Assembly (NCBI GenBank): GCA_964363305.1
Contig: CAYIHX010000005.1
Span: forward strand, 61,702-125,701
Reading direction: 5' to 3'
DNA from: an uncultured Bacteriovoracaceae bacterium
GTDB lineage: Bacteria; Bdellovibrionota; UBA1018
Length of the DNA stretch: 64,000 nucleotides
Shown here: piece after piece, positions 39,581 to 50,347 of the stretch
Position numbering within the stretch: the first letter of the stretch is position 1
Layout of the letters: each line of letters begins with the position of its first letter
The notes under the pieces: model-generated
The model's input: only the letters and a program-made list of their open reading frames with translations
Database searches by the model: none
Told to the model about the DNA's origin: nothing
Program-made: the position numbers and the translations under genes

Positions 39581-39832
39581 ATGCAGGTAATGACCAACAA
39601 ACGGGGATCGCCTCTCGCGGAAGTACTGCTCAGGCGCCGACGGGCACTGGGTATTACTCAGGAGCAACTGGCCAAATTTGCAGAATGCAGTGTTCCTTAC
39701 ATCTACTTGCTGGAGAGTGGAAAAACCACCGTTCGTATCGACAAGCTGATCGCCGTTCTCTCGGTTCTAGGGCTTCAGTTAAGGGTAGAGGCCGGTAAAG
39801 AAGGGCTGAAAATCGACGAGAAACTCAAATGA
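39581..39832 (+). CDS. hipB: XRE-family HTH antitoxin/regulator, HipB-like
   Basis: LRRRRALGITQEQLAKFAECSVPYIYLLESGK is an XRE HTH. It has a 4-nt overlap (ATGA) with the downstream hipA. Confidence 0.7.
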   Translation: MQVMTNKRGSPLAEVLLRRRRALGITQEQLAKFAECSVPYIYLLESGKTTVRIDKLIAVLSVLGLQLRVEAGKEGLKIDEKLK

Positions 39833-41070
39833 CCTGGGAGGAGATCAAGCACGTCAATACCGCTGATGTTTTTAGAGACTCGGTCTTGGTGGGAAAGATT
39901 TCGCGTATAGATCGGGGATCGGCTTTTGAGTACGACACAAATTACCTGGAGGGAGCGGACCGCGGCGGCGGAATCGCGTTTCATCTTCCTCATTTACGGA
40001 GAAGGCATGAGACGTCGGGAGTGAATCTCCACACCTACTTCGCGGGTCTTCTCCCTGAGGGCCTTCGCTTGAGAGCCTTGACGAAGCGGATGAAGACCTC
40101 GGAAGACGATCTCCTGAGCTTGCTGATTGCCACGGGTGGCGATTGCATCGGTGATGTTTCAGTTGTTCCTGAAAATCAACAACCCTCGAAGAAGGCGGTG
40201 CCTACGGTCGAGGTAAAAAATTTGAGAAAAGTCGTGTTCGCTGAGCTCTTCGAGCGAAGCATCGACTATGATGCGACTCAAAGTCCGGAACCTGAATCCA
40301 GCATCCCCGGTGTGCAGGAAAAAATATCAGCCGCGACGATTTCTTTTCCTGTGAAAACAAAAAAGACTCATGGTTCGTTTATCTTGAAACTCAATCCTCC
40401 CGACAAGCCGCGACTTGTTGAAAATGAGGATTTTTTTCTTCGCATGGCCAGAGCCTGTGGCCTCGAAGTGCCGAATGCCAAGCTTGTCAGGGACCGAGAA
40501 AACAATACCGGAATTTTGATCGAGAGATTTGACCGGATCCTTGTCCCCAAGGATCGGACGACTTTGAAGGTGCATCAGGAGGACGCCTGCCAGTTTCTTA
40601 ATCGCTACCCGTCTGAAAAATATCGCATCAAGTGCTCGGAAATCGCGGAAGGCCTCGCTGAATTTTGTTCCAGCTCTTCAGTGGAAACCTCGCGTTTCAT
40701 TCGTCTGCTTGCGTTTTCGTACCTGATTGGAAACGGGGATTTGCATGCGAAGAACGTCAGCGTTCAAGTCAAACCAGATACAAACGTCGTTACGATGACC
40801 CCGGCCTACGACCTTCTGACTACCTTGCCTTATGGTGATTCCCGAATGGCGCTTCAGTTCGAGGGACGGAGCGATAATTTCAAGAGGGCTTACTTCGTTG
40901 ATTTCGGTGAAAGATACGGAGTGAATAGAGCGATGACCCAATCGATCCTTGACGAGGTTTGCTCCCAGTCACAGTGCTGGGTGGATCGAGTGGGCGAAAT
41001 CGGTTTAGCCGCGAAAAAGACGGCGCAACTTAAATCTCTCATGAGAAAACGTCTCCTGGATCTCCGCTAA
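39829..41070 (+). CDS. hipA: HipA-family serine/threonine kinase toxin
   Basis: HipA N- and C-domain organisation. The catalytic loop IGNGDLHAKNVSV matches the D-x-H-x-K-N motif, about 413 aa. Confidence 0.8.
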   Translation: MTWEEIKHVNTADVFRDSVLVGKISRIDRGSAFEYDTNYLEGADRGGGIAFHLPHLRRRHETSGVNLHTYFAGLLPEGLRLRALTKRMKTSEDDLLSLLIATGGDCIGDVSVVPENQQPSKKAVPTVEVKNLRKVVFAELFERSIDYDATQSPEPESSIPGVQEKISAATISFPVKTKKTHGSFILKLNPPDKPRLVENEDFFLRMARACGLEVPNAKLVRDRENNTGILIERFDRILVPKDRTTLKVHQEDACQFLNRYPSEKYRIKCSEIAEGLAEFCSSSSVETSRFIRLLAFSYLIGNGDLHAKNVSVQVKPDTNVVTMTPAYDLLTTLPYGDSRMALQFEGRSDNFKRAYFVDFGERYGVNRAMTQSILDEVCSQSQCWVDRVGEIGLAAKKTAQLKSLMRKRLLDLR

Positions 41071-41160
41071 TTCGAGGTAAAGGGCGAATCGCCTCCGGGC
41101 TGGGCAGTGGGAGCTTGAGGTAGTCCTGGCCGCTTTCTGGATCGCGACTGATTTCATGAA

Positions 41161-41748
41161 TTGGTTGAGGCGGCCCGAGATTGTCGGTATATCCACGGAA
41201 TGCAAAAGTCTCTCGAGACCGATCGTCTCATTTTGCGTCCCTTGAAATTGAGCGATTATGCCTTCGTGCGCACGCTTCATACAGATCCGAAAGTGATGCG
41301 CTACATTGCAAGCGGGCCCGCCAGGTCGGAAGCCCAAACGCGGGAGTCCATTCAAAAGTCTCTCGCCATGAAAGAGGCAAATCCATGCCTGGGAACCTGG
41401 ATCGCGGAGCTGCGCGAAACTCAGGTGACGATGGGGACATTGATTTTGAGAACACCCGCTACGGCCGAAAAGACCGAGGGCATTGAGATTGGCTTTATTT
41501 TCGCCGCCGAACACTGGGGCAAGGGTTACGCGACCGAAGCGTCCCGCCGGTTGATCCAGTATGTGCATGATGCCCTGGGTGATGTGCGTATCGTGGCGCT
41601 GATCAATGCCGCGAATCAGGCCTCGAGAAATACGCTTCAGAAGCTTGGCTTCAAGACCGTCGGCACCACCGAATACGTGAATCCCGTCGGGGGCGAGGTT
41701 CTGCCCAGCGAGATCCTTGAGTACCAGACCTTAGACCCCACTCCATAA
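41161..41748 (+). CDS. GNAT N-acetyltransferase (RimJ/RimL-like)
   Basis: TDRLILRPLKLSDYAFVRTLHTDPKVMRYI...FIFAAEHWGKGYATEA...LQKLGF is a RimJ/L-type GNAT. The likely start is MQKSLETDRL (about 41200). Confidence 0.7.
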   Translation: MVEAARDCRYIHGMQKSLETDRLILRPLKLSDYAFVRTLHTDPKVMRYIASGPARSEAQTRESIQKSLAMKEANPCLGTWIAELRETQVTMGTLILRTPATAEKTEGIEIGFIFAAEHWGKGYATEASRRLIQYVHDALGDVRIVALINAANQASRNTLQKLGFKTVGTTEYVNPVGGEVLPSEILEYQTLDPTP

Positions 41749-42011
41749 ATGGCAGACAATTATGGAGCATGCTCAAGAGACGTCTGCTGGTTGATCAGTA
41801 CTCCAGTTTTTTGGCTGAACTGCACGCGGCCTGAGCGGATATAGCTTCCGGGAATTCGTTTTTCATCGAATAGAAGCGGAGCTTTGCGCGGCTCGATCAA
41901 GGGTTACGTAGTTTTTTGAGGGACGGTCCTTTAGGCAGAGGGTTCTGAGAAAGAAGCTCTTTCCGCATTGACGGGGTTCGAGGAGAAGGGCGACGTGTTC
42001 TTGGAAGTGGC

Positions 42012-42058
42012 ATATATGTTCAATTATTGCAGTCTGAGTGCAATAATTGAACATATAT
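42012..42058. repeat. Perfect AT-rich inverted repeat with 20-bp arms and a 7-nt spacer
   Basis: atatatgttcaattattgca-gtctgag-tgcaataattgaacatatat, read and reverse-complemented by hand. It lies in a 466-bp intergenic region of an otherwise GC-rich genome. Confidence 0.6.
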
Positions 42059-42215
42059 AACTTCTGATTTGGGGGGATTGCGATCGTGCCAGTAGGGACG
42101 AGAAGTCAGCGTTCTGAGCGAAAGGGGCTCTGGTTCGGCGTAGCTGGTGGTTTTGACATCGGCCAGTCAGTGGGTCAGGATTGGGACATAAGCGGACCTG
42201 TTGGGAAGGTAGTCA

Positions 42216-42626
42216 ATGCCAAAGAAGAAGAATGACAAGAGAGCTGAAATCCATCCTTGGCGGCCTTGCCCAGCAGGTGAGCACTGGGTCGCGACTCACT
42301 CATTGCAGATTCCTCCAAGTGGCAGACATCCCGCCGGCACCGTAACGACCCGGCACGCGCATTGTGCATTGAATCCTTCGAAGAAAGATCAACTCTATCC
42401 TGCGGAAATTCATGAAATCGCCGTTCGGCATTTTTTGAAATTGGAGAAGATGCCCTGCCCACTTGCTCTAAAGTTTGGCAAAGAGGGGAACGCGTATGAT
42501 GATCTCATTGCCGGTTGGGTTCAGTATCCGAACCTTTTCAAGGCTCTCGTCGCTTCGGAGTCCAGATTCAAACCAGACATTTTAGCCGACAAGAAAAATC
42601 AGAACAGCAGCGTGCCAAGGAGCTGA
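42216..42626 (+). CDS. Hypothetical protein
   Basis: 136-aa ORF with a Lys-rich N-terminus (MPKKKNDKR) and no recognisable domain. ggaaggtag precedes the ATG. Confidence 0.4.
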   Translation: MPKKKNDKRAEIHPWRPCPAGEHWVATHSLQIPPSGRHPAGTVTTRHAHCALNPSKKDQLYPAEIHEIAVRHFLKLEKMPCPLALKFGKEGNAYDDLIAGWVQYPNLFKALVASESRFKPDILADKKNQNSSVPRS

Positions 42627-42663
42627 TGGGCCGCTTCCTAGGATACCTGGAGGAGTATAAGAA

Positions 42664-43221
42664 ATGTGGCAAGTCCTCATCATAGGTCTGTTCGCGCCTT
42701 TCACGGTGAATGCCGAGGTGCCATCGGCGCACTTGGGCGCGAGGTTTCCGTATGGCCTTCTTGGGGATGACTTCGGGCTCCTCGCGGCATGCATTGCCAC
42801 ACCCGAGCCTTTCTCACCTGACTCTACCGAGTACCCCTACTGGCAGTGCTTTTCGGTCCAAGAGGCATCCTTTGAATGCGACAGCACGGGCTATGACGGG
42901 AGTGAAAAGTCAGTCATGGCGATCATGGCCATTGTCGCTCGGAAAAACGGCGAAGAGCATGAATACCTATCTCGACGGGCGATTCCCATGAAAGGGTGTC
43001 GCGCCCATGAGAGTGAATGGAAAAAACTGACGGCGCGCCGAAAACATGTCTGTCTGTCGGGGGCACTGATCAGGATTGAGACGACCACGGAGGGGAAGAG
43101 CGTCGGACACTGGATCTTTGAAGCACTCAAGACCGACAAAGGGTGCGATTCCTATTTCGCCGGGGGATGCGATTTAAAGTACCAGGTGAAACACGGGTGC
43201 GAGATCGCGCGGAGGAATTGA
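42664..43221 (+). CDS. Secreted cysteine-rich hypothetical protein
   Basis: Signal peptide MWQVLIIGLFAPFTVNA and about 10 Cys including CDSTGY, KGC, GGCDLKYQVKHGC. ggaggag lies 6 nt upstream. Confidence 0.5.
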   Translation: MWQVLIIGLFAPFTVNAEVPSAHLGARFPYGLLGDDFGLLAACIATPEPFSPDSTEYPYWQCFSVQEASFECDSTGYDGSEKSVMAIMAIVARKNGEEHEYLSRRAIPMKGCRAHESEWKKLTARRKHVCLSGALIRIETTTEGKSVGHWIFEALKTDKGCDSYFAGGCDLKYQVKHGCEIARRN

Positions 43222-43269
43222 AGAGTTCGCTTTTCCAACTTGCCAGGCCCTCGCGATGAGGCGACACCA

Positions 43270-43788
43270 TCACCCCAGTTCGTCGAATAGCTCTTCCAGA
43301 AAAAACTGCGTCTTGGCGGGGATCGCTTTTCGTGGGTAATAATTTTCGATGAGTTCAAAAACTTGTTCTGGGCTTTTGATTTTAAAAAAACGGATGAGGG
43401 TTTTGAGATCTTGAGCGTCGTGGGTGTCGAAGCGAGCGCTGATCGCTTTCATCGCAAGCAGGTAAGGAGTGGGAGGAATCCAGACCGTGAGGTGAGGCAG
43501 GTCGAGGATGACTTGTCTTGGGCTGGAGTTGGCCGGCATGAACCCTTTGACGGCGTCGTTAATCCAGTCGTTGGGGAGCCCGAGTCGAGGGGCGATCCGC
43601 GCCGCGGCTTCCCGAATCTGAGACGAAGGCTCGAAAATGGCGTCGACATCTTTCGTGGCTTTCCTTGCGTTGAAGGCTAGCACCATCGCTGCACCGCCCA
43701 CGATGCCGATCTCGCCTCGTAGTCCCTCTTTCGAAAGTTCTTCCTCAAGTCGGTGAAGTGCCTGAATGATCTGATCCTGAGTCATGTT
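43270..43788 (-). CDS. Minimal nucleotidyltransferase with an AbiEii-like GG[ST]A-x(n)-R-x-[ST]-x-D-[IV]-D motif
   Basis: GIVGGAAMVLAFNARKATKDVDAIFEP resembles the AbiEii/DUF1814 NTase motif, but the protein is only about 171 aa. The likely start is MTQDQII (about 43788). Confidence 0.55.
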   Translation of the reverse strand, partial: NMTQDQIIQALHRLEEELSKEGLRGEIGIVGGAAMVLAFNARKATKDVDAIFEPSSQIREAAARIAPRLGLPNDWINDAVKGFMPANSSPRQVILDLPHLTVWIPPTPYLLAMKAISARFDTHDAQDLKTLIRFFKIKSPEQVFELIENYYPRKAIPAKTQFFLEELFDELG

Positions 43789-43792
43789 TTTT

Positions 43793-44173
43793 CTATACTC
43801 GGTTGAGAAAATTTCCCAAGACGAAGATATTATTTTGCCTGAAAGGGGTTGGGCTTTCCTGAAGCGCACTGGCTTTCAGATTTTCTATTCCAGAGACGAA
43901 GTAAGGTGCAGGTAGAAACTGGGGGCGCGTTGCCCACCATGGTTCGGGAATGTCGAGTTCTTGTGCCAGCGCTCGGGCGGTCGCATTGATGACCGCGCGC
44001 TCTCGCGTTCGCCGGGAGCGCGAGTAAAGGCGTTTCAATGCTTCGAATGTGCGGGTGCGACGAGCCTCATCGACCGCATCAAAGAAGGGCACCCAATCGG
44101 TGAGGTCACGACGCGGGGGGCGTCCGGCTTTTCTGGTGAGGCGTGGTGCCGGGAGCATACGAGGGTGACTCAT
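43793..44173 (-). CDS. Small Arg-rich basic protein upstream of the NTase (candidate partner or DNA-binding component)
   Basis: 126-aa ORF with N-terminus PRLTRKAGRPPRRDL (AT-hook-like). It abuts the NTase gene with a 4-nt gap. Confidence 0.4.
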   Translation of the reverse strand: MSHPRMLPAPRLTRKAGRPPRRDLTDWVPFFDAVDEARRTRTFEALKRLYSRSRRTRERAVINATARALAQELDIPEPWWATRPQFLPAPYFVSGIENLKASALQESPTPFRQNNIFVLGNFLNRV

Positions 44174-44279
44174 CTCTTCAGGGTAGATGATTTCGTGAAT
44201 TAAGGCAATTATGTATAACTATATAATATTACGTGATTATATCATATTATCGATTTGCTCCATCTGAAAGAACCTTGAG

Positions 44280-44327
44280 TATACAATACACCGAATCGAC
44301 ATAAGTGTCGATTCGGTGTATTGTATA
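44280..44327. repeat. Perfect inverted repeat with 22-bp arms and a 4-nt spacer in a divergent promoter region
   Basis: tatacaatacaccgaatcgaca-taag-tgtcgattcggtgtattgtata. It lies between the divergent genes at 44173(-) and 44548(+), flanked by a very AT-rich stretch (44195..44270). Confidence 0.6.
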
Positions 44328-44547
44328 AATATGACAGAACGGCACTCATTTCTCTCGGTCTCCAAAAATCATTCAGACATCCGAGCCGAAACAAACGGAG
44401 ACGACGCAGAGATGGAAACTCTCTTTGAGTTTGGCGAATAGCGAGTCGCTTCTGCATACAAAAATCGAGTTTTCCCGTCGGCAGGCGGCCCGCCATGCGA
44501 TTTGACGCTGGAGAGGGGGTGGTTGATCAGTTGGAGAAGATGAAGTC

Positions 44548-45171
44548 ATGAATCTGGTCGACGCTTTCTCCAGACTGCGGGGACTCAAGCCGGGTACCTT
44601 TCAGACCTCGGATGCGGCAGTTTGCCTGGGGGTCACTCGGGGTGCCGCTAGCAAGATTCTCTCGCGGCTCGCCGACCGTAAGCTTCTGGTTTGCTTGACC
44701 CGCGGGCGGTGGGGGATGGCTGGAAAAGTGGATCGTCTGGCCGTACCCGAGGCGCTCACGGCGCCCTGGCCGAGTTACGTTTCCTTGCAGAGTGCGCTGT
44801 TCCACCATGGAATGATTGAGCAGATCCCGGAGGTGATTTATGCCGTCTCTCTGAGTCGCGCTCGTCGATTCGAAAACGCGCTCGGAGTGTATTCCATTCA
44901 TCAGGTGCAGCCCGATTTTTTTTGGGGATTTGATACGGTGGGCCCGCAGGGACTGAAAATCGCCACGCCGGAGAAAGCTTTGCTCGACGTGCTTTATCTC
45001 AGCACCGCGCGATCTAGGCTCTTCAAGAGACTGCCCGAGCTTGAGCTGACAAAAAAATTCAGTGTCAAGCGGGCCCGTGAAATGATCGGGCGGATCAAAT
45101 CACCCCAGCGCCGCAGTCTCGTGGCCTCTCGGTTTGAGGCGATGATTCTAAATCTAAAGAGGGCGCGGTAA
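44548..45171 (+). CDS. AbiEi-like antitoxin/transcriptional regulator (N-terminal wHTH, AbiEi_4-type)
   Basis: FQTSDAAVCLGVTRGAASKILSRLADRKLLVCLTRGRWGMAG matches the AbiEi N-terminal pattern, about 207 aa. Confidence 0.6.
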   Translation: MNLVDAFSRLRGLKPGTFQTSDAAVCLGVTRGAASKILSRLADRKLLVCLTRGRWGMAGKVDRLAVPEALTAPWPSYVSLQSALFHHGMIEQIPEVIYAVSLSRARRFENALGVYSIHQVQPDFFWGFDTVGPQGLKIATPEKALLDVLYLSTARSRLFKRLPELELTKKFSVKRAREMIGRIKSPQRRSLVASRFEAMILNLKRAR

Positions 45172-45199
45172 GGCGAGATGGAAGTCCGGATGCGCGCCA

Positions 45200-46114
45200 C
45201 TAAAATAAGAATATTTCGCGCGAACCGGATCGAATGAGTTCCCGTATGTCAGGCGTCTCATCGAGGACGATTCGATGGACCCGACAGTAACGGGACCAGG
45301 GGCCGGGCACGGCTCGGTCGCATAAGATGGGGGAGCGCAGTGTAATCGACTGAACTTTGGATGTTGATCGAGCTGCTATTCGGTCTCGAAAAAGGTCATA
45401 TCCGGTTTGAGTGGAAAAAAAGTAGGCTCGTTTCTCATAGAGATCTCTCAGTTGGTCGGAAGATTCACCAGAACTGATGCGTAGGGCCTCTACATTTCTT
45501 AGAAGCTCGATCTTTGCGTGAGCTAATGCTTCGGTTTCATTTGCCCTACAAGAGAAGCCAAATGCGTAACGTCCGGGCGCGTATGTGTTTTGAATCAAGG
45601 CGAAATAGTAGGTGTGGGAGTCAAAGTAAATTTGAGCGCCGAACGTATCTTGGGTTCTGAAATCTCGTTGGAGGGAGATGGATCCACGCCAGGCATTGAG
45701 GAGGACGTGTCGCTCGAGAGCCTCGCATAAGGCGTGCTGACGACAGGCCTTGAGGTCCGAAACTCCACGTGCAGCCATCCCATGTGTAGAGGTGGACCAG
45801 TCGAGGGCAAGTTGGCTCTTTCGAGAACTGTCCGGCGAGGACATGCATTCAACGAAAGCCCACCGTTCCATCGCCTCAAAGATGGCCTTTCGAATGGAGT
45901 GAATCCGGCTTGCATCGGTTCCACAGCCAGGTGCTGAGCTGTAGAGCAGGCTATGCGGCGCAAGCGAGTGGAGAAGGTCGGGGTGAATCCATGCGGAAGC
46001 TTGCCAGAAGTTTTCTGATTTGAGTTGAATGGTGGTAATTTTAGAAATGGGTCCGGTGGGCAGCGTGGATTGAAAAAGGCGTAAATCGTTTTGGAGCTGT
46101 TTGAAGATACTCAC
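45200..46114 (-). CDS. Short YcaO-domain protein
   Basis: Two YcaO hallmark motifs. GCGTDASRIHSIRKAIFEAMER resembles E. coli YcaO GKGATKKAALASALGEYFER. GMAARGVSDLKACRQHALCEALER resembles SAGNTRNEARVQGLSEVFER. It is about 304 aa and overlaps the upstream SBP gene by 4 nt. Confidence 0.6.
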   Translation of the reverse strand: MSIFKQLQNDLRLFQSTLPTGPISKITTIQLKSENFWQASAWIHPDLLHSLAPHSLLYSSAPGCGTDASRIHSIRKAIFEAMERWAFVECMSSPDSSRKSQLALDWSTSTHGMAARGVSDLKACRQHALCEALERHVLLNAWRGSISLQRDFRTQDTFGAQIYFDSHTYYFALIQNTYAPGRYAFGFSCRANETEALAHAKIELLRNVEALRISSGESSDQLRDLYEKRAYFFSTQTGYDLFRDRIAARSTSKVQSITLRSPILCDRAVPGPWSRYCRVHRIVLDETPDIRELIRSGSREIFLF

Positions 46115-47565
46115 TCATAGAGCCCTAGGAAATGAAGTGCGGTCGGTGGTTGAATCGTATTCAGTAAGCTTGCGTCTACTCTCTTTGATACCCAAATTCC
46201 GGGTCGGAAATGAGCAAGGGGGAGGACTAGGGCGTCTTCCTTGAGGTTTTTTTCTATTGCTGCGAAGTCCACCTTTTCTTGGTCGAGAATTTTAGAAATT
46301 TTCCCGGTAGGGTCGGGCAATTGAATACCTTCCTTAGACCTGAACATGAATCGGACGTCATCTTCCGGGTATTCCAGCAAGACCCCGGAAGAGAGAGTGA
46401 TGAGATCAACCGCGGGATCCGCTGGGTCTGAAAAATGACGAAATAATTCCTGGGGGCGAATCGGAATCTCGATCAAGTGAATCTTGTTTTTCGAGCAGAC
46501 GCTTCTGAGTGCGTCAAAAAATGACATAATTGCTTTGTTTTGGGTGGTTCGAACCCCAATACGAAGTGTTTTCGTCGCTGTTGGGCGGATCCTTGCCTCG
46601 GCGTGGGAGTGCTGCGCTTCTGGAGAAACGGGGAGGAGTCGATCCGGGATGAGGATATTTCGGATTCGTATCTCACCGGCAATCGCGTCGAAGAGCCAGC
46701 GCCGGTTTTCTTGGCTGGCGCAGAAGGATTGAATGTCATGACTCGAAACACAGCGCACGAAGCTGAAGTTTGAAACGGCGCCGCCGAGAAATGAATACTT
46801 CGATTTTTCCGGCATGGACAGGATGTCGAGGTCGGTTCCTGGAATCACATCGGAAGAACCGGATTCTTGCTGGGAAACAGCAATTTCGTGTGGCGATTTC
46901 GGATGCCTCCAGTCAGACGGAAAGGCGGAGAGATCTCGGAGTTCGAGGGTGTAAGAATTTTGAGTCCAACTCTTGATGCGGTAGGGTCCGGAGGCGATTG
47001 CAGTTTGGGGGTTTCGCCATGTCAGCGATTTTGGATCAAAGTCTTTCTCGGAACAAATGGCATATTGCCCGAAAGAAAGAAAATCGAGAAGACGTGGGAT
47101 AGGTTTCTTGAGCTGAATCTCGAGGGTAAATTTCTTGTCGTCGGCTTTAAATTTCGCCACGTGTTCGAGAAAACCGGCATTTGATTTTTTCCGAGCGAGA
47201 ACGGCCGAAGCGCGTCTCCAGCACTTCTCGATCGACGAAGGCAGGAGGGGTTCACCGTCATCAAAGTGTAGTCCTGAGCGGATATGGAATAACCATCGGA
47301 GGCCGTCTGGCCCGACCTGCCACGAGGAGGCAATCATTCCCGTGGGCTCGCCGAGTTTGTACTGTGTGACGAGGGTAGCGAGAACAGGCGACTGAGTCAC
47401 GTGGTGGACATGATAGTCAAATTCAAGTGGGTCGGTGGAAAAAGGCATGGACTCGAGCCTTACCTGGAGAGGCTGAGTATCGTGCCGTTCAGAGGTGCAG
47501 TGTGTCGTCGTTAGAAATATTAAGGAGAGGATACCGATTGAAAGCCCGAATCGCGCATTTTCCAT
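46111..47565 (-). CDS. Family-5 extracellular solute-binding protein (peptide/oligopeptide SBP type), secreted
   Basis: Signal peptide MENARFGLSIGILSLIFLTTTHC and SBP_bac_5 architecture over about 484 aa. No adjacent ABC permease or ATPase genes. Confidence 0.7.
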   Translation of the reverse strand: MENARFGLSIGILSLIFLTTTHCTSERHDTQPLQVRLESMPFSTDPLEFDYHVHHVTQSPVLATLVTQYKLGEPTGMIASSWQVGPDGLRWLFHIRSGLHFDDGEPLLPSSIEKCWRRASAVLARKKSNAGFLEHVAKFKADDKKFTLEIQLKKPIPRLLDFLSFGQYAICSEKDFDPKSLTWRNPQTAIASGPYRIKSWTQNSYTLELRDLSAFPSDWRHPKSPHEIAVSQQESGSSDVIPGTDLDILSMPEKSKYSFLGGAVSNFSFVRCVSSHDIQSFCASQENRRWLFDAIAGEIRIRNILIPDRLLPVSPEAQHSHAEARIRPTATKTLRIGVRTTQNKAIMSFFDALRSVCSKNKIHLIEIPIRPQELFRHFSDPADPAVDLITLSSGVLLEYPEDDVRFMFRSKEGIQLPDPTGKISKILDQEKVDFAAIEKNLKEDALVLPLAHFRPGIWVSKRVDASLLNTIQPPTALHFLGLYE

Positions 47566-47763
47566 GTGTGTGAAGTATGCACCCTACGAGCGATGAATAC
47601 CCCAGCATTTTCTGAGCCAGAACCTTCGCTTTTTGTACTTTCTGAAACACTTTGCGTGAGTGGATGAAGTTTCTCGCTCGCTTGCGAGAGTCCAAAAAAA
47701 GACAATAAAACCAAAAGATAAGGAGAAGATAGCTTCTCATGTCTGACCTCGGGAGTTGGTTTA

Positions 47764-48930
47764 TTGCATTTAATGCGATATGTCAAATTTGTGTTTTTTC
47801 CAGAACGTCGGCTCCCGATAGGTAGGCGCTCTCTATTGGCCTTTTTGGCAATTGTATTGCTTGGGCTTCTTTCAATTGCGTCGATTCGCTTTGATCAGAT
47901 TCGAGAGGGAGACCAGCTCGAGCTGGTTCTTCCTCGCGCCATTCGAGGTGCGTTAGATAACTCGACTCGGCCTTCCGATCTGATTGTTTCCGTGGGGCGG
48001 ACGCTCGATATTTTTCATTGGAAACGGGTAGAGATTTGGAAAAAAGACGAGCTGCTCTTTGAGAGAAGGAGGGGTTGGAGTTTACCCGTGTTTTTGCTTC
48101 GGGAACTGAGAATTCAGCCTACGCCAAGTGATCCCCAGTTATTTCTCAAGGTTTGGATTCCGCCTAACTTTGAAAATGGTTTCGTTTTTTCTCTGTTTAT
48201 CGTTTTAGCCGCTGCGGGAGTTTGGATCATTGTCCGGTTGCAGTTTGAATGGAACGAGCGGTTGATGGCGGCGCGGGCTGAGTACTTTCATTTGGCGAAG
48301 CAAACCGCTCATGATTTGCGGTCGCCTGTCGGCGCATTGAGGATACTGGTCCGGTCGGCCGGGGGCAGCATAGAGCCAGAGCTTCGCACACTATTGGAAT
48401 CCGCTGTCCGTAGTATCGGACAGATTTCTGATTCCCTGCTCTTGAAGTCCAATGCCTCGCGGGGCGCCAGTATTTCTGAAATTGAATTGCAGCTACGAAA
48501 GGTGATTGATCTTAAGAAGCTGGAATGGAGCTTGGGGCCGAGCATTGCTATGGAGGTCGAACACGAGATAGCCGACGCCACTACCTGTTTTAGGATGCCA
48601 CACGGCGGGCTGGATTCGATTCTTTCCAATCTTCTCAATAACGCGAAGGAGGCGGGGCATCCATTGGATCGACCGATTTTGGTTCGGATGGTGAGTTCGG
48701 CGGGTGAGCTACGGGTTGAAGTGGTTGATGCCGGGAAGGGAATTCCTGTGGGAGTGTTGAAGTCTCTTCTGAAGGGTGAAAGCGGGGTATCGACCAAGCA
48801 ATCCGGAAATGGATTGGGTTTGTCAGGTGCCATGAAAAAGATGAGAGAGGTCGATGGTCGGCTCGAACTCGATTCGGAGGACGGAGTGGGTACTCGAGTT
48901 CGGCTGTATTTTTCAGAGAATGGAGTTTGA
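47764..48930 (+). CDS. Sensor histidine kinase with periplasmic loop (orphan; no adjacent response regulator)
   Basis: Two TM segments flank a loop of about 120 aa. H-box AHDLRSPVGAL, N-box LSNLLNNAKEAG and G-boxes DAGKGIP / GNGLGLS. Confidence 0.75.
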   Translation: MHLMRYVKFVFFPERRLPIGRRSLLAFLAIVLLGLLSIASIRFDQIREGDQLELVLPRAIRGALDNSTRPSDLIVSVGRTLDIFHWKRVEIWKKDELLFERRRGWSLPVFLLRELRIQPTPSDPQLFLKVWIPPNFENGFVFSLFIVLAAAGVWIIVRLQFEWNERLMAARAEYFHLAKQTAHDLRSPVGALRILVRSAGGSIEPELRTLLESAVRSIGQISDSLLLKSNASRGASISEIELQLRKVIDLKKLEWSLGPSIAMEVEHEIADATTCFRMPHGGLDSILSNLLNNAKEAGHPLDRPILVRMVSSAGELRVEVVDAGKGIPVGVLKSLLKGESGVSTKQSGNGLGLSGAMKKMREVDGRLELDSEDGVGTRVRLYFSENGV

Positions 48931-48989
48931 TCGGGATTTTCCGTATTTAGGAATTGGCGATCGGGCCCTGATTTGAGACGAGAGGAAGT

Positions 48990-49958
48990 ATGAGTTCTGG
49001 AAAACCCATCTTAGTCACCGGCTCCTCCGGCTTCATCGGGACCCATCTGGTGAGCCTGCTCTCCGCCCAGGGCGCCACGGTGACAGGCTTTGATCTGAAG
49101 CCAGCGACGGCTTCGGGCTATCGCGCAGTCGAAGGGGACCTCCGCAAGCTGACGTCCGCCGGATGGGATGATTTGCTTTCGGGCGTCTCGGCGGTGTTTC
49201 ATTTGGCGGCGACGGTGAGTATTCCGGCTTGCCAGGAAGACCCGATCGCGAGTGAAGAGAATAATGTCGCCGTGACGCTGCGGCTTCTCGATGCTTTGCG
49301 GAGGCAGAAGACTCGGTCCGGGGAGTGCGCGCGTTTCTACTTTGCGAGCTCGGCGGCGATCTATGGCGCTCGGGGCGACTCCGGGGATGCTTTGCGTGAA
49401 GAGGATGTCCCAGATCGATTTCTTTCGTTCTACGCGGCTCAGAAAGGGGCGAGCGAACAGCTGGCCCATCAGTACGCGGAACATTTTGCGATTCCGGCGC
49501 TGTCGTTTCGCTTCTTCAATGTGTACGGCGCGGGACAGGACCCGGTTTCGCCGTATTCGGGCGTGATTTCGCGATTTTTGCATTTTCTGGCTCAGGGGCA
49601 GCCGCTCGTTTTACAAGGGGGCGGCAAGGCGGTTCGAGATTTTATTCAGGTGTCCGACCTCGTGGGCGCGATAGTGCGGGCGCTGGATGTTCCCGTGGCT
49701 CAGATGAAGGGGCAGGCCGTGAATCTGGCCAGCGGAACCAGCGTGTCGATTCGAGAGATGGCCGAGGCTTTTGAGCGGATCGTGAAGGCCGCAGGTCGCC
49801 CCTGGCCGGGATTTCAGGAGGCTCCTCCTCGGGGGGGCGATGTTCGATTTTCGCGCGCGGATCTCACGCGCTGCCGCTCCCTGCTCGGTCAGGCGCAGCC
49901 TCATTCTCTCGAGGCGGGCTTGCGGGAGCTGCTTGCGGGGGAATCCGGCGCTTGCTAA
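48990..49958 (+). CDS. NAD-dependent epimerase/dehydratase (UDP-sugar 4-epimerase-like)
   Basis: ILVTGSSGFIGTHLVSLL Rossmann motif. A YxxxK segment (YAAQKGASEQ) is present. Confidence 0.8.
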   Translation: MSSGKPILVTGSSGFIGTHLVSLLSAQGATVTGFDLKPATASGYRAVEGDLRKLTSAGWDDLLSGVSAVFHLAATVSIPACQEDPIASEENNVAVTLRLLDALRRQKTRSGECARFYFASSAAIYGARGDSGDALREEDVPDRFLSFYAAQKGASEQLAHQYAEHFAIPALSFRFFNVYGAGQDPVSPYSGVISRFLHFLAQGQPLVLQGGGKAVRDFIQVSDLVGAIVRALDVPVAQMKGQAVNLASGTSVSIREMAEAFERIVKAAGRPWPGFQEAPPRGGDVRFSRADLTRCRSLLGQAQPHSLEAGLRELLAGESGAC

Positions 49959-49973
49959 CTTGCCTTTAGACCT

Positions 49974-50066
49974 ATGAATGTCACCCCGCTGAAGAATGCA
50001 TATGCGTCGTTGGAAGAAGTTTTGGCTCAGCCCTATAACGACTTTATTCGAGACGCGAGAGTATGA
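49974..50066 (+). pseudogene. Possible 30-codon remnant of a HEPN (HI0074-like NTase-substrate-binding) gene
   Basis: MNVTPLKNAYASLEEVLAQPYNDFIRDARV* resembles the N-terminus of HI0074-family proteins (...kkAlerLeEal...iirDa..) but stops after 30 codons. Its stop overlaps the MNT start (ATGA). Confidence 0.25.
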
Positions 50067-50347
50067 ACGATCAGGTGGCAGGATCAGGAGTGACTCCGCC
50101 GCAGCGAGATCTCATTCTCAAGTCAAAAGTGCTCCTGTTCGGCTCGCGCGCCAAAGGCTCGGCGCGGCAGTATTCAGATTTGGATCTCGCCCTCCAACCC
50201 AGTCGGTCGCTCACTTCAGCGCAGCTGCGGGCCATTCGAGAAATTTTTTCAGAGAGCGATCTCCCTTTTTTGGTCGACTTGGTGATATGGGAGGATCTGG
50301 ATCCCGAATTTCAGAAGTTGATTGAGCGGGAGTGTGTCGAGTTTTAA
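50063..50347 (+). CDS. Minimal nucleotidyltransferase (MNT/MntA-like, Pol-beta superfamily)
   Basis: LLFGSRAKGSARQYSDLDLAL is the GS-x(n)-D-x-D NTase motif, about 94 aa. Confidence 0.7.
   Translation: MNDQVAGSGVTPPQRDLILKSKVLLFGSRAKGSARQYSDLDLALQPSRSLTSAQLRAIREIFSESDLPFLVDLVIWEDLDPEFQKLIERECVEF

Follow-up and report, generated by a model that had tools for sequence, protein, structure and literature searches.

In a 64,000-nt stretch of DNA from an uncultured Bacteriovoracaceae bacterium (GCA_964363305.1, contig CAYIHX010000005.1), hereafter called the window, we analyzed the interval 43270-45171, in which a small nucleotidyltransferase (NTase) gene and a short partner gene are divergent from a gene resembling abiEi of the AbiE type IV toxin–antitoxin (TA) or abortive-infection system (Dy et al. 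2014, PMC3985639; Beck et al. 2020, PMC7319586). The original prediction joined these three genes, and the long palindrome between the divergent starts, into one rearranged AbiE variant. The open reading frames (ORFs), the palindrome and the AT-rich stretch that it described are all present in the sequence; their union into a single system did not hold up. It is very likely that the interval carries two independent, divergently transcribed modules instead, a DUF6036 TA-like cassette and a decayed abiE operon. The first, module A (43270..44239, minus strand), consists of the small gene followed by the NTase gene, and the second, module B (44280..45171, plus strand), is the remnant of a toxin-first abiEii-abiEi operon. 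Their juxtaposition appears incidental in this genome. A false lead is thereby removed, there being no three-gene “rearranged AbiE”, and what is defined in its place is a two-gene family of a DUF6036 NTase with a partner domain, in two architectures and with two candidate operator motifs.

The independence of the modules is found in their relatives. A scan of one genome per species gave 133 relatives of the small protein, 80 of whose loci were fetched, and in the 770 kb around these 80 DUF6036 pairs there was not one match to an AbiEi or AbiEii profile; conversely, the DUF6036 and small-protein profiles matched nothing in 317 kb around 85 abiE loci. The abiEi gene of the window, moreover, has its own abiEii fragment upstream. 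The same arrangement of genes is found in a second assembly, an ENA contig from Hainich groundwater (L001) that aligns to window positions 41051-50158 with 99.945% identity and no gaps, and the layout is therefore not an artefact of a single assembly. Between the divergent genes, a 374-bp spacer holds the predicted control regions of both modules; its AT-rich stretch has a GC content of 0.41 across 44150-44449, compared with about 0.5-0.6 in the surroundings.

Regarding module B, the divergent gene had been taken as an AbiEi, and this assignment is borne out by a PADLOC AbiEi match (E 2.9e-27) and by 1156 homologues, many of which carry PF13338 or are named “transcriptional regulator of viral defense system”. 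The protein keeps 26 of 26 invariant columns of a 39-sequence alignment, and it scores 25.9 bits against the NCBIfam model TAA_AbiEi, below the cut-off of 150, so it is not that equivalog. The gene context was taken from look-up loci pooled with metagenome loci, counting as informative those in which 800 nt or more were available upstream (n=62). In all 62, abiEi lies immediately 3' of abiEii (PF08843, about 250 aa) with a 4-nt overlap, and the same order is seen in all five exact look-up loci, which are counted among the 62; abiEii is full-length in 60 and shortened in the other two. As a separate observation, this abiEii-first AbiE subfamily (L083-L167) has at least 536 relatives in one metagenome scan.

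In the window, the place of abiEii is occupied by a remnant. Three AbiEii proteins from related operons matched window positions 44353-44481 in tblastn searches with 56-58% identity (E 1e-11 to 1e-13), and a 16-sequence AbiEii profile aligned its positions 83-126 of 249 to 44362-44493 (56 bits, E 1.3e-18). This fragment of 44 codons retains the family-invariant EPKQTETTQRWK and TKIEFSRR, with about 82 N-terminal codons missing, including those of the catalytic GG...DxD, and about 120 missing from the C-terminal side. The range 44280..45171 thus contains residues ~83-126 of about 250 and no intact DUF1814 toxin gene. We suggest that two internal deletions in abiEii would explain this structure, one removing the catalytic N-terminus and the other most of the C-terminal half, and that they would have left a predicted promoter/operator, the 44 codons of the fragment and an intact abiEi, whose product is now an orphan antitoxin that is probably still under its own control. 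The possible original ends of abiEii are an ATG at 44331, 3 nt after the palindrome, and a tail reading ...VVDQLEKMKS* that ends in an ATGA overlap with abiEi. Module B offers a well-resolved case of TA decay in which internal deletions took out the toxin gene but spared both the antitoxin and the predicted operator embedded in the promoter; the AbiE relic itself is ordinary biology. Toxin-gene decay with antitoxin retention seems recurrent in this AbiE subfamily. C-terminal abiEii fragments also stand before abiEi, with ample upstream sequence, at L123:2184-2501 and L125:1345-1791, covering profile positions 156-248 and 195-248, respectively.

Table 1. Features of the two modules in the window, with the basis of each assignment.
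Feature	Position	Strand	Basis
DUF6036 NTase, 171 aa, putative toxin of the cassette	43270..43785	-	PF19502 match, conserved motif
Small partner protein, 126 aa (121 aa from M6 at 44158), putative antitoxin/autoregulator	43793..44173	-	homologues, adjacency to NTase
AT-rich upstream motif, putative promoter/operator of the small-gene/NTase pair	44206..44239	-	upstream alignment
Perfect inverted repeat, predicted promoter/operator of the decayed abiEii-abiEi operon	44280..44327	.	inverted-repeat family of relatives
abiEii pseudogene remnant	44331..44547	+	statistical support for 44362..44493 alone
abiEi, 207 aa, intact, COG5340-type winged helix-turn-helix antitoxin/repressor, orphan	44548..45171	+	PADLOC, homologues, invariant columns

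With respect to module A, the NTase had been described as a minimal protein of the AbiEii type, of which one half stands: it is a Pol-beta NTase with an intact GG...DxD, and its family is DUF6036 rather than AbiEii. It matches the Pfam DUF6036 model (PF19502) with 33.9 bits and E 3.3e-8, above the gathering cut-off of 23.6 bits, and has 553 homologues, almost all of those listed carrying PF19502. Among 33 homologues, G30, G31, D46, D77, K113, R118 and D120 are invariant and D48 nearly so, and the Pol-beta motif reads VGG(30-31)-x14-D46-V-D48 (GG-x14-DxD), a spacing one residue above the range (x9-13 or so) quoted in PMC3985639. The model of the AbiEii family itself, PF08843, proposed earlier as a check, gave no match at E<=1; the PADLOC AbiEii model reached E 0.049 over just 30 residues around the catalytic motif, and hhalign against the 16-sequence AbiEii alignment returned a probability of 0.9% (E 0.061) with the GG...DxD core alone aligned. 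An identity as an AbiEii/DUF1814 toxin is ruled out by these results together with the length of 171 aa, compared with about 250-300 aa. The end of the gene at 43270 and the 171 aa first reported are correct; the start is the ATG at 43783-43785, with which the database gene call agrees, and the earlier ORF limit of 43788 included one codon too many. In parallel, a search of a literature library found no mention of DUF6036 or PF19502.

The small ORF on the minus strand, which was predicted to be a partner of the NTase and which could have been non-coding, is a real gene, with about 72 close homologues that share 60-78% identity and many invariant residues, and with 787 clusters in an exhaustive profile search of a library of 1.84 billion proteins, their lengths centring on about 114-125 aa or about 186-190 aa. 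In all of these clusters, the shared domain, of about 95 aa (~70-95 aa), is C-terminal. The close homologues have a strongly conserved C-terminus, P[WY]FV[SA]GxENLKA...FRxxNIFVLGNFLxR[AV]; the protein has no match in Pfam, NCBIfam, PADLOC or PHROGs, and the domain is found in none of these four libraries. The distant homologues, of 187-205 aa, have an added N-terminal XRE helix-turn-helix (HTH), which is present in most relatives; the clade of the window is HTH-less. By the sequence comparison, this clade appears to have lost the HTH and to keep a short, basic G[RK]PP tail, which reads KAGRPPRR in the window within a Pro-rich N-terminus and has xPGKPPxxG as its clade consensus. Compared with the AT-hook core R-G-R-P, the G-[RK]-P is kept in the clade and the preceding Arg is variable, with no Pfam match. 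In the AlphaFold2 model, the N-terminal 20 residues are disordered, helices 22-67 have a predicted local distance difference test score (pLDDT) above 90, and the conserved C-terminal segment is less confident. A relationship of this protein to AbiEi or to the C-terminus of AbiEii was considered and rejected, hhalign being negative. Public gene calls start the protein at M6 (44158, 121 aa) instead of 44173; we place the start at the ATG of 44173 because the upstream motif and box described below sit at a fixed distance from it in the alignment of relatives. From there the gene runs to 43793, and the gap to the NTase gene is 7 nt, not the 4 nt of the original prediction.

The small gene and the NTase gene form a tightly coupled autonomous pair. 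A DUF6036 NTase adjoins the small gene in 67 of the 80 fetched loci, usually with the small gene first and in 11 loci in the reverse order, and the median spacing is +2 nt when the small gene leads and -4 nt when the NTase does; in the other 13 loci, some of which lie at contig ends, the small gene has no adjacent NTase. The partnership foreseen for the small basic ORF is thus conserved and operon-coupled in relatives. These relatives occur in many phyla, including Pseudomonadota, Bdellovibrionota/Oligoflexia, Elusimicrobiota, Verrucomicrobiota/Kiritimatiellia/Lentisphaeria, Acidobacteriota, Chloroflexota, Planctomycetota and others, and two metagenome-assembled genomes (MAGs) carry two copies each (L066/L074 and L076/L079). 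The flanking genes are unrelated between loci: the 115 neighbours carry 143 Pfam families, of which the most frequent is seen just 5 times, and the survey of these flanks found no conserved third gene beside the pair. The small protein/DUF6036 pair appears to be an undescribed TA-like family of NTase.

Module A also has putative control regions of its own. The minus-strand reading of the AT-rich motif listed in Table 1 is ...TAATCACGTAATATTATATAGTTATACATAATTG, with a core resembling a GTTA-N8-TAAC dyad, and the upstream alignment shows AGTTATACATAATTA(AC) and a TACCAT/TACAAT-like box in common between the window and its closest relatives (L003-L008). The distance from this box to the ATG is 7-8 nt in the HTH-less clade, and in the window a -10-like CTACCCT lies at 44180-44186, 6 nt before the ATG of the small gene. 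Given that the motif is shared by the HTH-less clade, the AT-rich stretch beside the small gene belongs to the DUF6036 cassette, and its position and conservation make it a putative promoter/operator of the pair. The HTH-containing forms have a different element: in 26 of 49 long (HTH) forms, and in none of 31 short forms, the start is preceded, typically at a distance of 15 nt, by a 20-bp palindrome whose type is TGACGTAAT-AT-ATTACGTCA. Near-perfect examples of it, with the variant TGACGTAAT-AT/AC-ATTACGTCA, are seen at L018:4830-4849, L038:5709-5728, L057:5694-5713, L062:5753-5772 and other loci. Several phyla share this 20-bp palindrome, a candidate operator of the small-protein family.

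As to what module A does, we suggest by analogy that the small protein acts as antitoxin and autorepressor and the NTase as toxin. The small protein would neutralise the NTase through its conserved C-terminal domain and would repress its own promoter, in most members through the XRE HTH; in the HTH-less clade, the basic GRPP tail would possibly act on the conserved AT-rich motif instead, a combination that suggests an AT-hook-like recognition, with the motif being non-canonical. The NTase, for its part, would inhibit growth by nucleotide transfer to a target that may be RNA or protein, the analogy being with AbiEii and MenT. We read the module as TA-like because of the DNA-binding N-terminus and C-terminal domain of the partner, the cognate palindrome, the tight coupling of the genes, the intact catalytic site, the patchy distribution and the unrelated neighbourhoods. 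The indirect signs of such a system are, accordingly, the tight two-gene operon with variable order, its patchy spread among unrelated neighbours, the autoregulator-like partner and the existence of orphan partner genes. In its full form, the proposal is that the pair represents an undescribed, widespread family of NTase TA systems, possibly anti-phage, in which a C-terminal domain of ~70-95 aa neutralises a 170-aa NTase, and in which, in the clade of the window, an AT-hook-like G[RK]PP tail replaces the XRE HTH and recognises an AT-rich operator; taken as a whole, we hold this proposal tentatively, as a serious possibility.

It is unlikely, though worth considering, that module A is not a TA system at all, the NTase being a benign enzyme, either a small-molecule or antibiotic NTase or an RNA-tailing one, and the small protein its transcription factor or specificity subunit. 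XRE regulators do precede many kinds of genes, neither protein is recognised by defence or TA libraries, and the NTase is close in size to ANT(2'')-Ia, which appeared solely as a fold match without significance (E 2.6). Against this stand the retention of the C-terminal domain of the small protein even in members without the HTH and a spacing like that of translational coupling in either gene order, along with an occurrence that is patchy among phyla, in which distant lineages share 60-78% identity and the neighbours are unrelated, and the presence of two copies in single MAGs.

Less probable still is a TA system with its roles reversed, as in HEPN-MNT (type VII), where a small NTase is the antitoxin and modifies a toxic small partner. 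The MNT (minimal nucleotidyltransferase) antitoxins are indeed small Pol-beta NTases of similar size, and the gene order of the DUF6036 family is variable; however, the small protein has no Rx4-6H, its single His being H3, and it shows no similarity to any HEPN model, most members of its family carry an XRE HTH and a cognate palindrome, which are the hallmark of an antitoxin or regulator, and some loci have the small gene without an adjacent NTase. We consider this reversal a distinctly improbable arrangement.

Returning to the palindrome between the two modules, it consists of two arms of 22 nt (44280-44301 and 44306-44327), 100% complementary and separated by a 4-nt spacer, and reads TATACAATACACCGAATCGACA-taag-TGTCGATTCGGTGTATTGTATA; it is single-copy in the window, and none of 100 shuffles gave a match for it. 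The original prediction regarded it as an operator candidate for AbiEi, which it very probably is, by comparison with the repeats upstream of abiEii in relatives; it was also regarded as an element shared with the NTase pair, which does not agree with its position and design as those of an abiE operon, nor with the pair having an upstream motif of its own. In the 130 nt upstream of abiEii, the best inverted repeat scores at least 10 in 19 of 58 operons, compared with 1 of 189 coding controls, and these repeats end 5-28 nt before the start codon (examples are L157, L088, L162 and L083). They share the design (T)ACAATAC/ATAATAC-N5-6-TTGACA/TCGACA-N4-TGTC...GTATTAT/GTATTGTA, and the consensus of the abiEii-first subfamily is of the type ATAATAC-N5-6-TTGACA-N4-TGTCAA-N5-6-GTATTAT. 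In the closest relative with context (L083), the repeat reads TATATTACTAGCAAGCGACA-ctta-TGTCGAGTGCAGGTAATATA, its 20-nt arms standing 4 nt apart; an AT-rich tract comes before it, and it ends 5 nt short of the abiEii ATG. In L157 it reads TACAATACCTGTAGTTGACATA|TATGACAACTACAGGTATTGTA. The palindrome of the window is a full member of this abiE inverted-repeat family.

The family design amounts to TTGACA-17-TATTAT, the inner hexamer being -35-like and the outer GTATTAT/GTATTGT holding the -10-like box, and on the plus strand of the window the corresponding TCGACA (44296-44301) and TATTGT (44319-44324) are 17 nt apart. Given that these boxes lie within the repeat, the predicted operator coincides with the promoter core, and this fits a negative autoregulation such as that in S. 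agalactiae, where AbiEi has been shown by experiment to bind inverted repeats at the abiE promoter whose 23-bp arms are separated by 3 nt (PMC3985639; see also PMC7319586). AbiEi of the window would bind its palindrome in the same way. The toxin-first AbiE subfamily, with an operator consensus that can be read from its members, should be useful for the study of DNA recognition by AbiEi.

Other explanations of the palindrome were tried and rejected. A role as operator of the DUF6036 pair is contradicted by the closest relatives of the pair, whose upstream regions lack any long inverted repeat, and by the HTH forms, which have a palindrome of another kind. Against a repeated or mobile element, the sequence was single-copy in the window and its core was absent from the searches of JGI metagenome contigs and IMG/VR. 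As an RNA element or terminator, it gave sub-threshold miRNA-hairpin noise in Rfam, and no T-run follows the hairpin on either strand.

Several points weigh against the reading of two separate modules, one of them TA-like, and have to be set beside it. The symmetry of the palindrome also yields a mirror -35/-10-like pair facing module A, through which there may be regulatory cross-talk between AbiEi and module A. The assignment of toxin and antitoxin within module A was made by analogy. The AlphaFold2 models of the NTase and the small protein are moderate (pLDDT about 78), the catalytic loop of the NTase is modelled with low confidence, and neither protein has a significant Foldseek match in the PDB, so the fold assignment of the NTase rests on Pfam and the motif; sequence and profile searches of the PDB, as well as BFVD, likewise gave no relatives or significant matches for the two proteins. 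Finally, the original ATG and tail of abiEii were assigned by position and short similarity, without statistical support.

With the two-module reading retained, the mirror promoter could add to it a control of the DUF6036 cassette by the orphan AbiEi, an extra that we consider improbable. The single rearranged AbiE-like system, in which control or neutralisation of the minimal NTase and its basic partner would fall to the divergent AbiEi via a shared palindrome, draws on the adjacency of the genes and their divergence around the palindrome, on the Pol-beta core motif common to the NTase and AbiEii and on the promoter-like pair that faces the DUF6036 operon, and it is nevertheless the least probable explanation, one that we give hardly any credit, given that the modules are never together in the 80 and 85 related loci, that the sequence from the palindrome to abiEi holds a remnant of abiEii, that the palindrome fits the repeats of intact abiEii-abiEi operons, that a separate conserved motif stands upstream of the DUF6036 pair and that the NTase is not a DUF1814 protein.

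Compared with known systems, module B shares with AbiE its COG5340-type AbiEi, a long inverted repeat at the predicted promoter (23-bp arms with N3 in S. agalactiae) and a fragment of a DUF1814-type toxin. In the described COG5340-COG2253 pairs, the regulator precedes the NTase (PMC3985639), whereas in the subfamily of module B the toxin comes first and the antitoxin second, with the 4-nt overlap; furthermore, the toxin gene of the window is a deleted stump, so the pair is no longer a functional TA. Module A, in turn, resembles the MenAT/DUF1814 systems (PMC7450476, PMC10435456, PMC11375011) in being a small operon of a Pol-beta NTase with GG...DxD and a small, diverse partner. It differs from them in that its NTase is a DUF6036 protein of 171 aa, compared with about 250-300 aa for DUF1814, with a similarity confined to the catalytic core, and in that its partner domain is unrelated to AbiEi. 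NTases of the AbiEii/MenT type block translation by modifying tRNA acceptor ends (PMC7450476, PMC10435456), and these toxins would provide the best functional analogy for the NTase of module A.

With the HEPN-MNT systems, module A has in common a minimal NTase encoded beside a small partner in an operon of two tightly spaced genes; the difference is that this partner lacks Rx4-6H and any HEPN match and usually comes with an HTH and an operator, a combination pointing to roles the other way round. Classical type II antitoxins, such as those of the HigA and HipB types, combine an XRE HTH with a C-terminal toxin-binding region. The likeness, seen in most small-protein members, lies in the XRE HTH, the partner domain at the C-terminus and the palindrome that shortly precedes their own gene; the difference is that the C-terminal domain is in no library and that the clade of the window is HTH-less.

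In the rest of the window, signals of a genomic island were sought, and neither a tRNA gene nor a clear GC shift was found. Upstream of the interval lies a hipBA-like module (39581..41070, plus strand), in which an 83-aa XRE-HTH ORF (39581..39832) overlaps by 4 nt the gene of a 413-aa HipA kinase (39829..41070; HipA_C E 1.7e-46, Couple_hipA E 1.2e-17), and directly 3' of hipA there is a GNAT acetyltransferase gene (41161..41748, plus strand; Acetyltransf_3, E 5e-31). Convergent with the NTase gene are two ORFs of 136 aa and 185 aa (42216..43221, plus strand) with no Pfam or NCBIfam match; the 185-aa product, which has no PADLOC match either, is Cys-rich and has an N-terminal hydrophobic stretch that may be a signal peptide. 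On the other side, an operon convergent with abiEi (45200..47565, minus strand) shows the unusual pairing of a 304-aa protein, weakly matching YcaO (E 1.9e-6 over 43 residues, with a faint SagD-type match), with a 484-aa SBP_bac_5-type solute-binding protein to which it is translationally coupled. Further downstream, a 94-aa minimal nucleotidyltransferase of the MNT-like type (50063..50347, plus strand; NTP_transf_2/Polbeta in the precomputed annotation of the groundwater contig) has no obvious HEPN partner downstream, the next gene being convergent.

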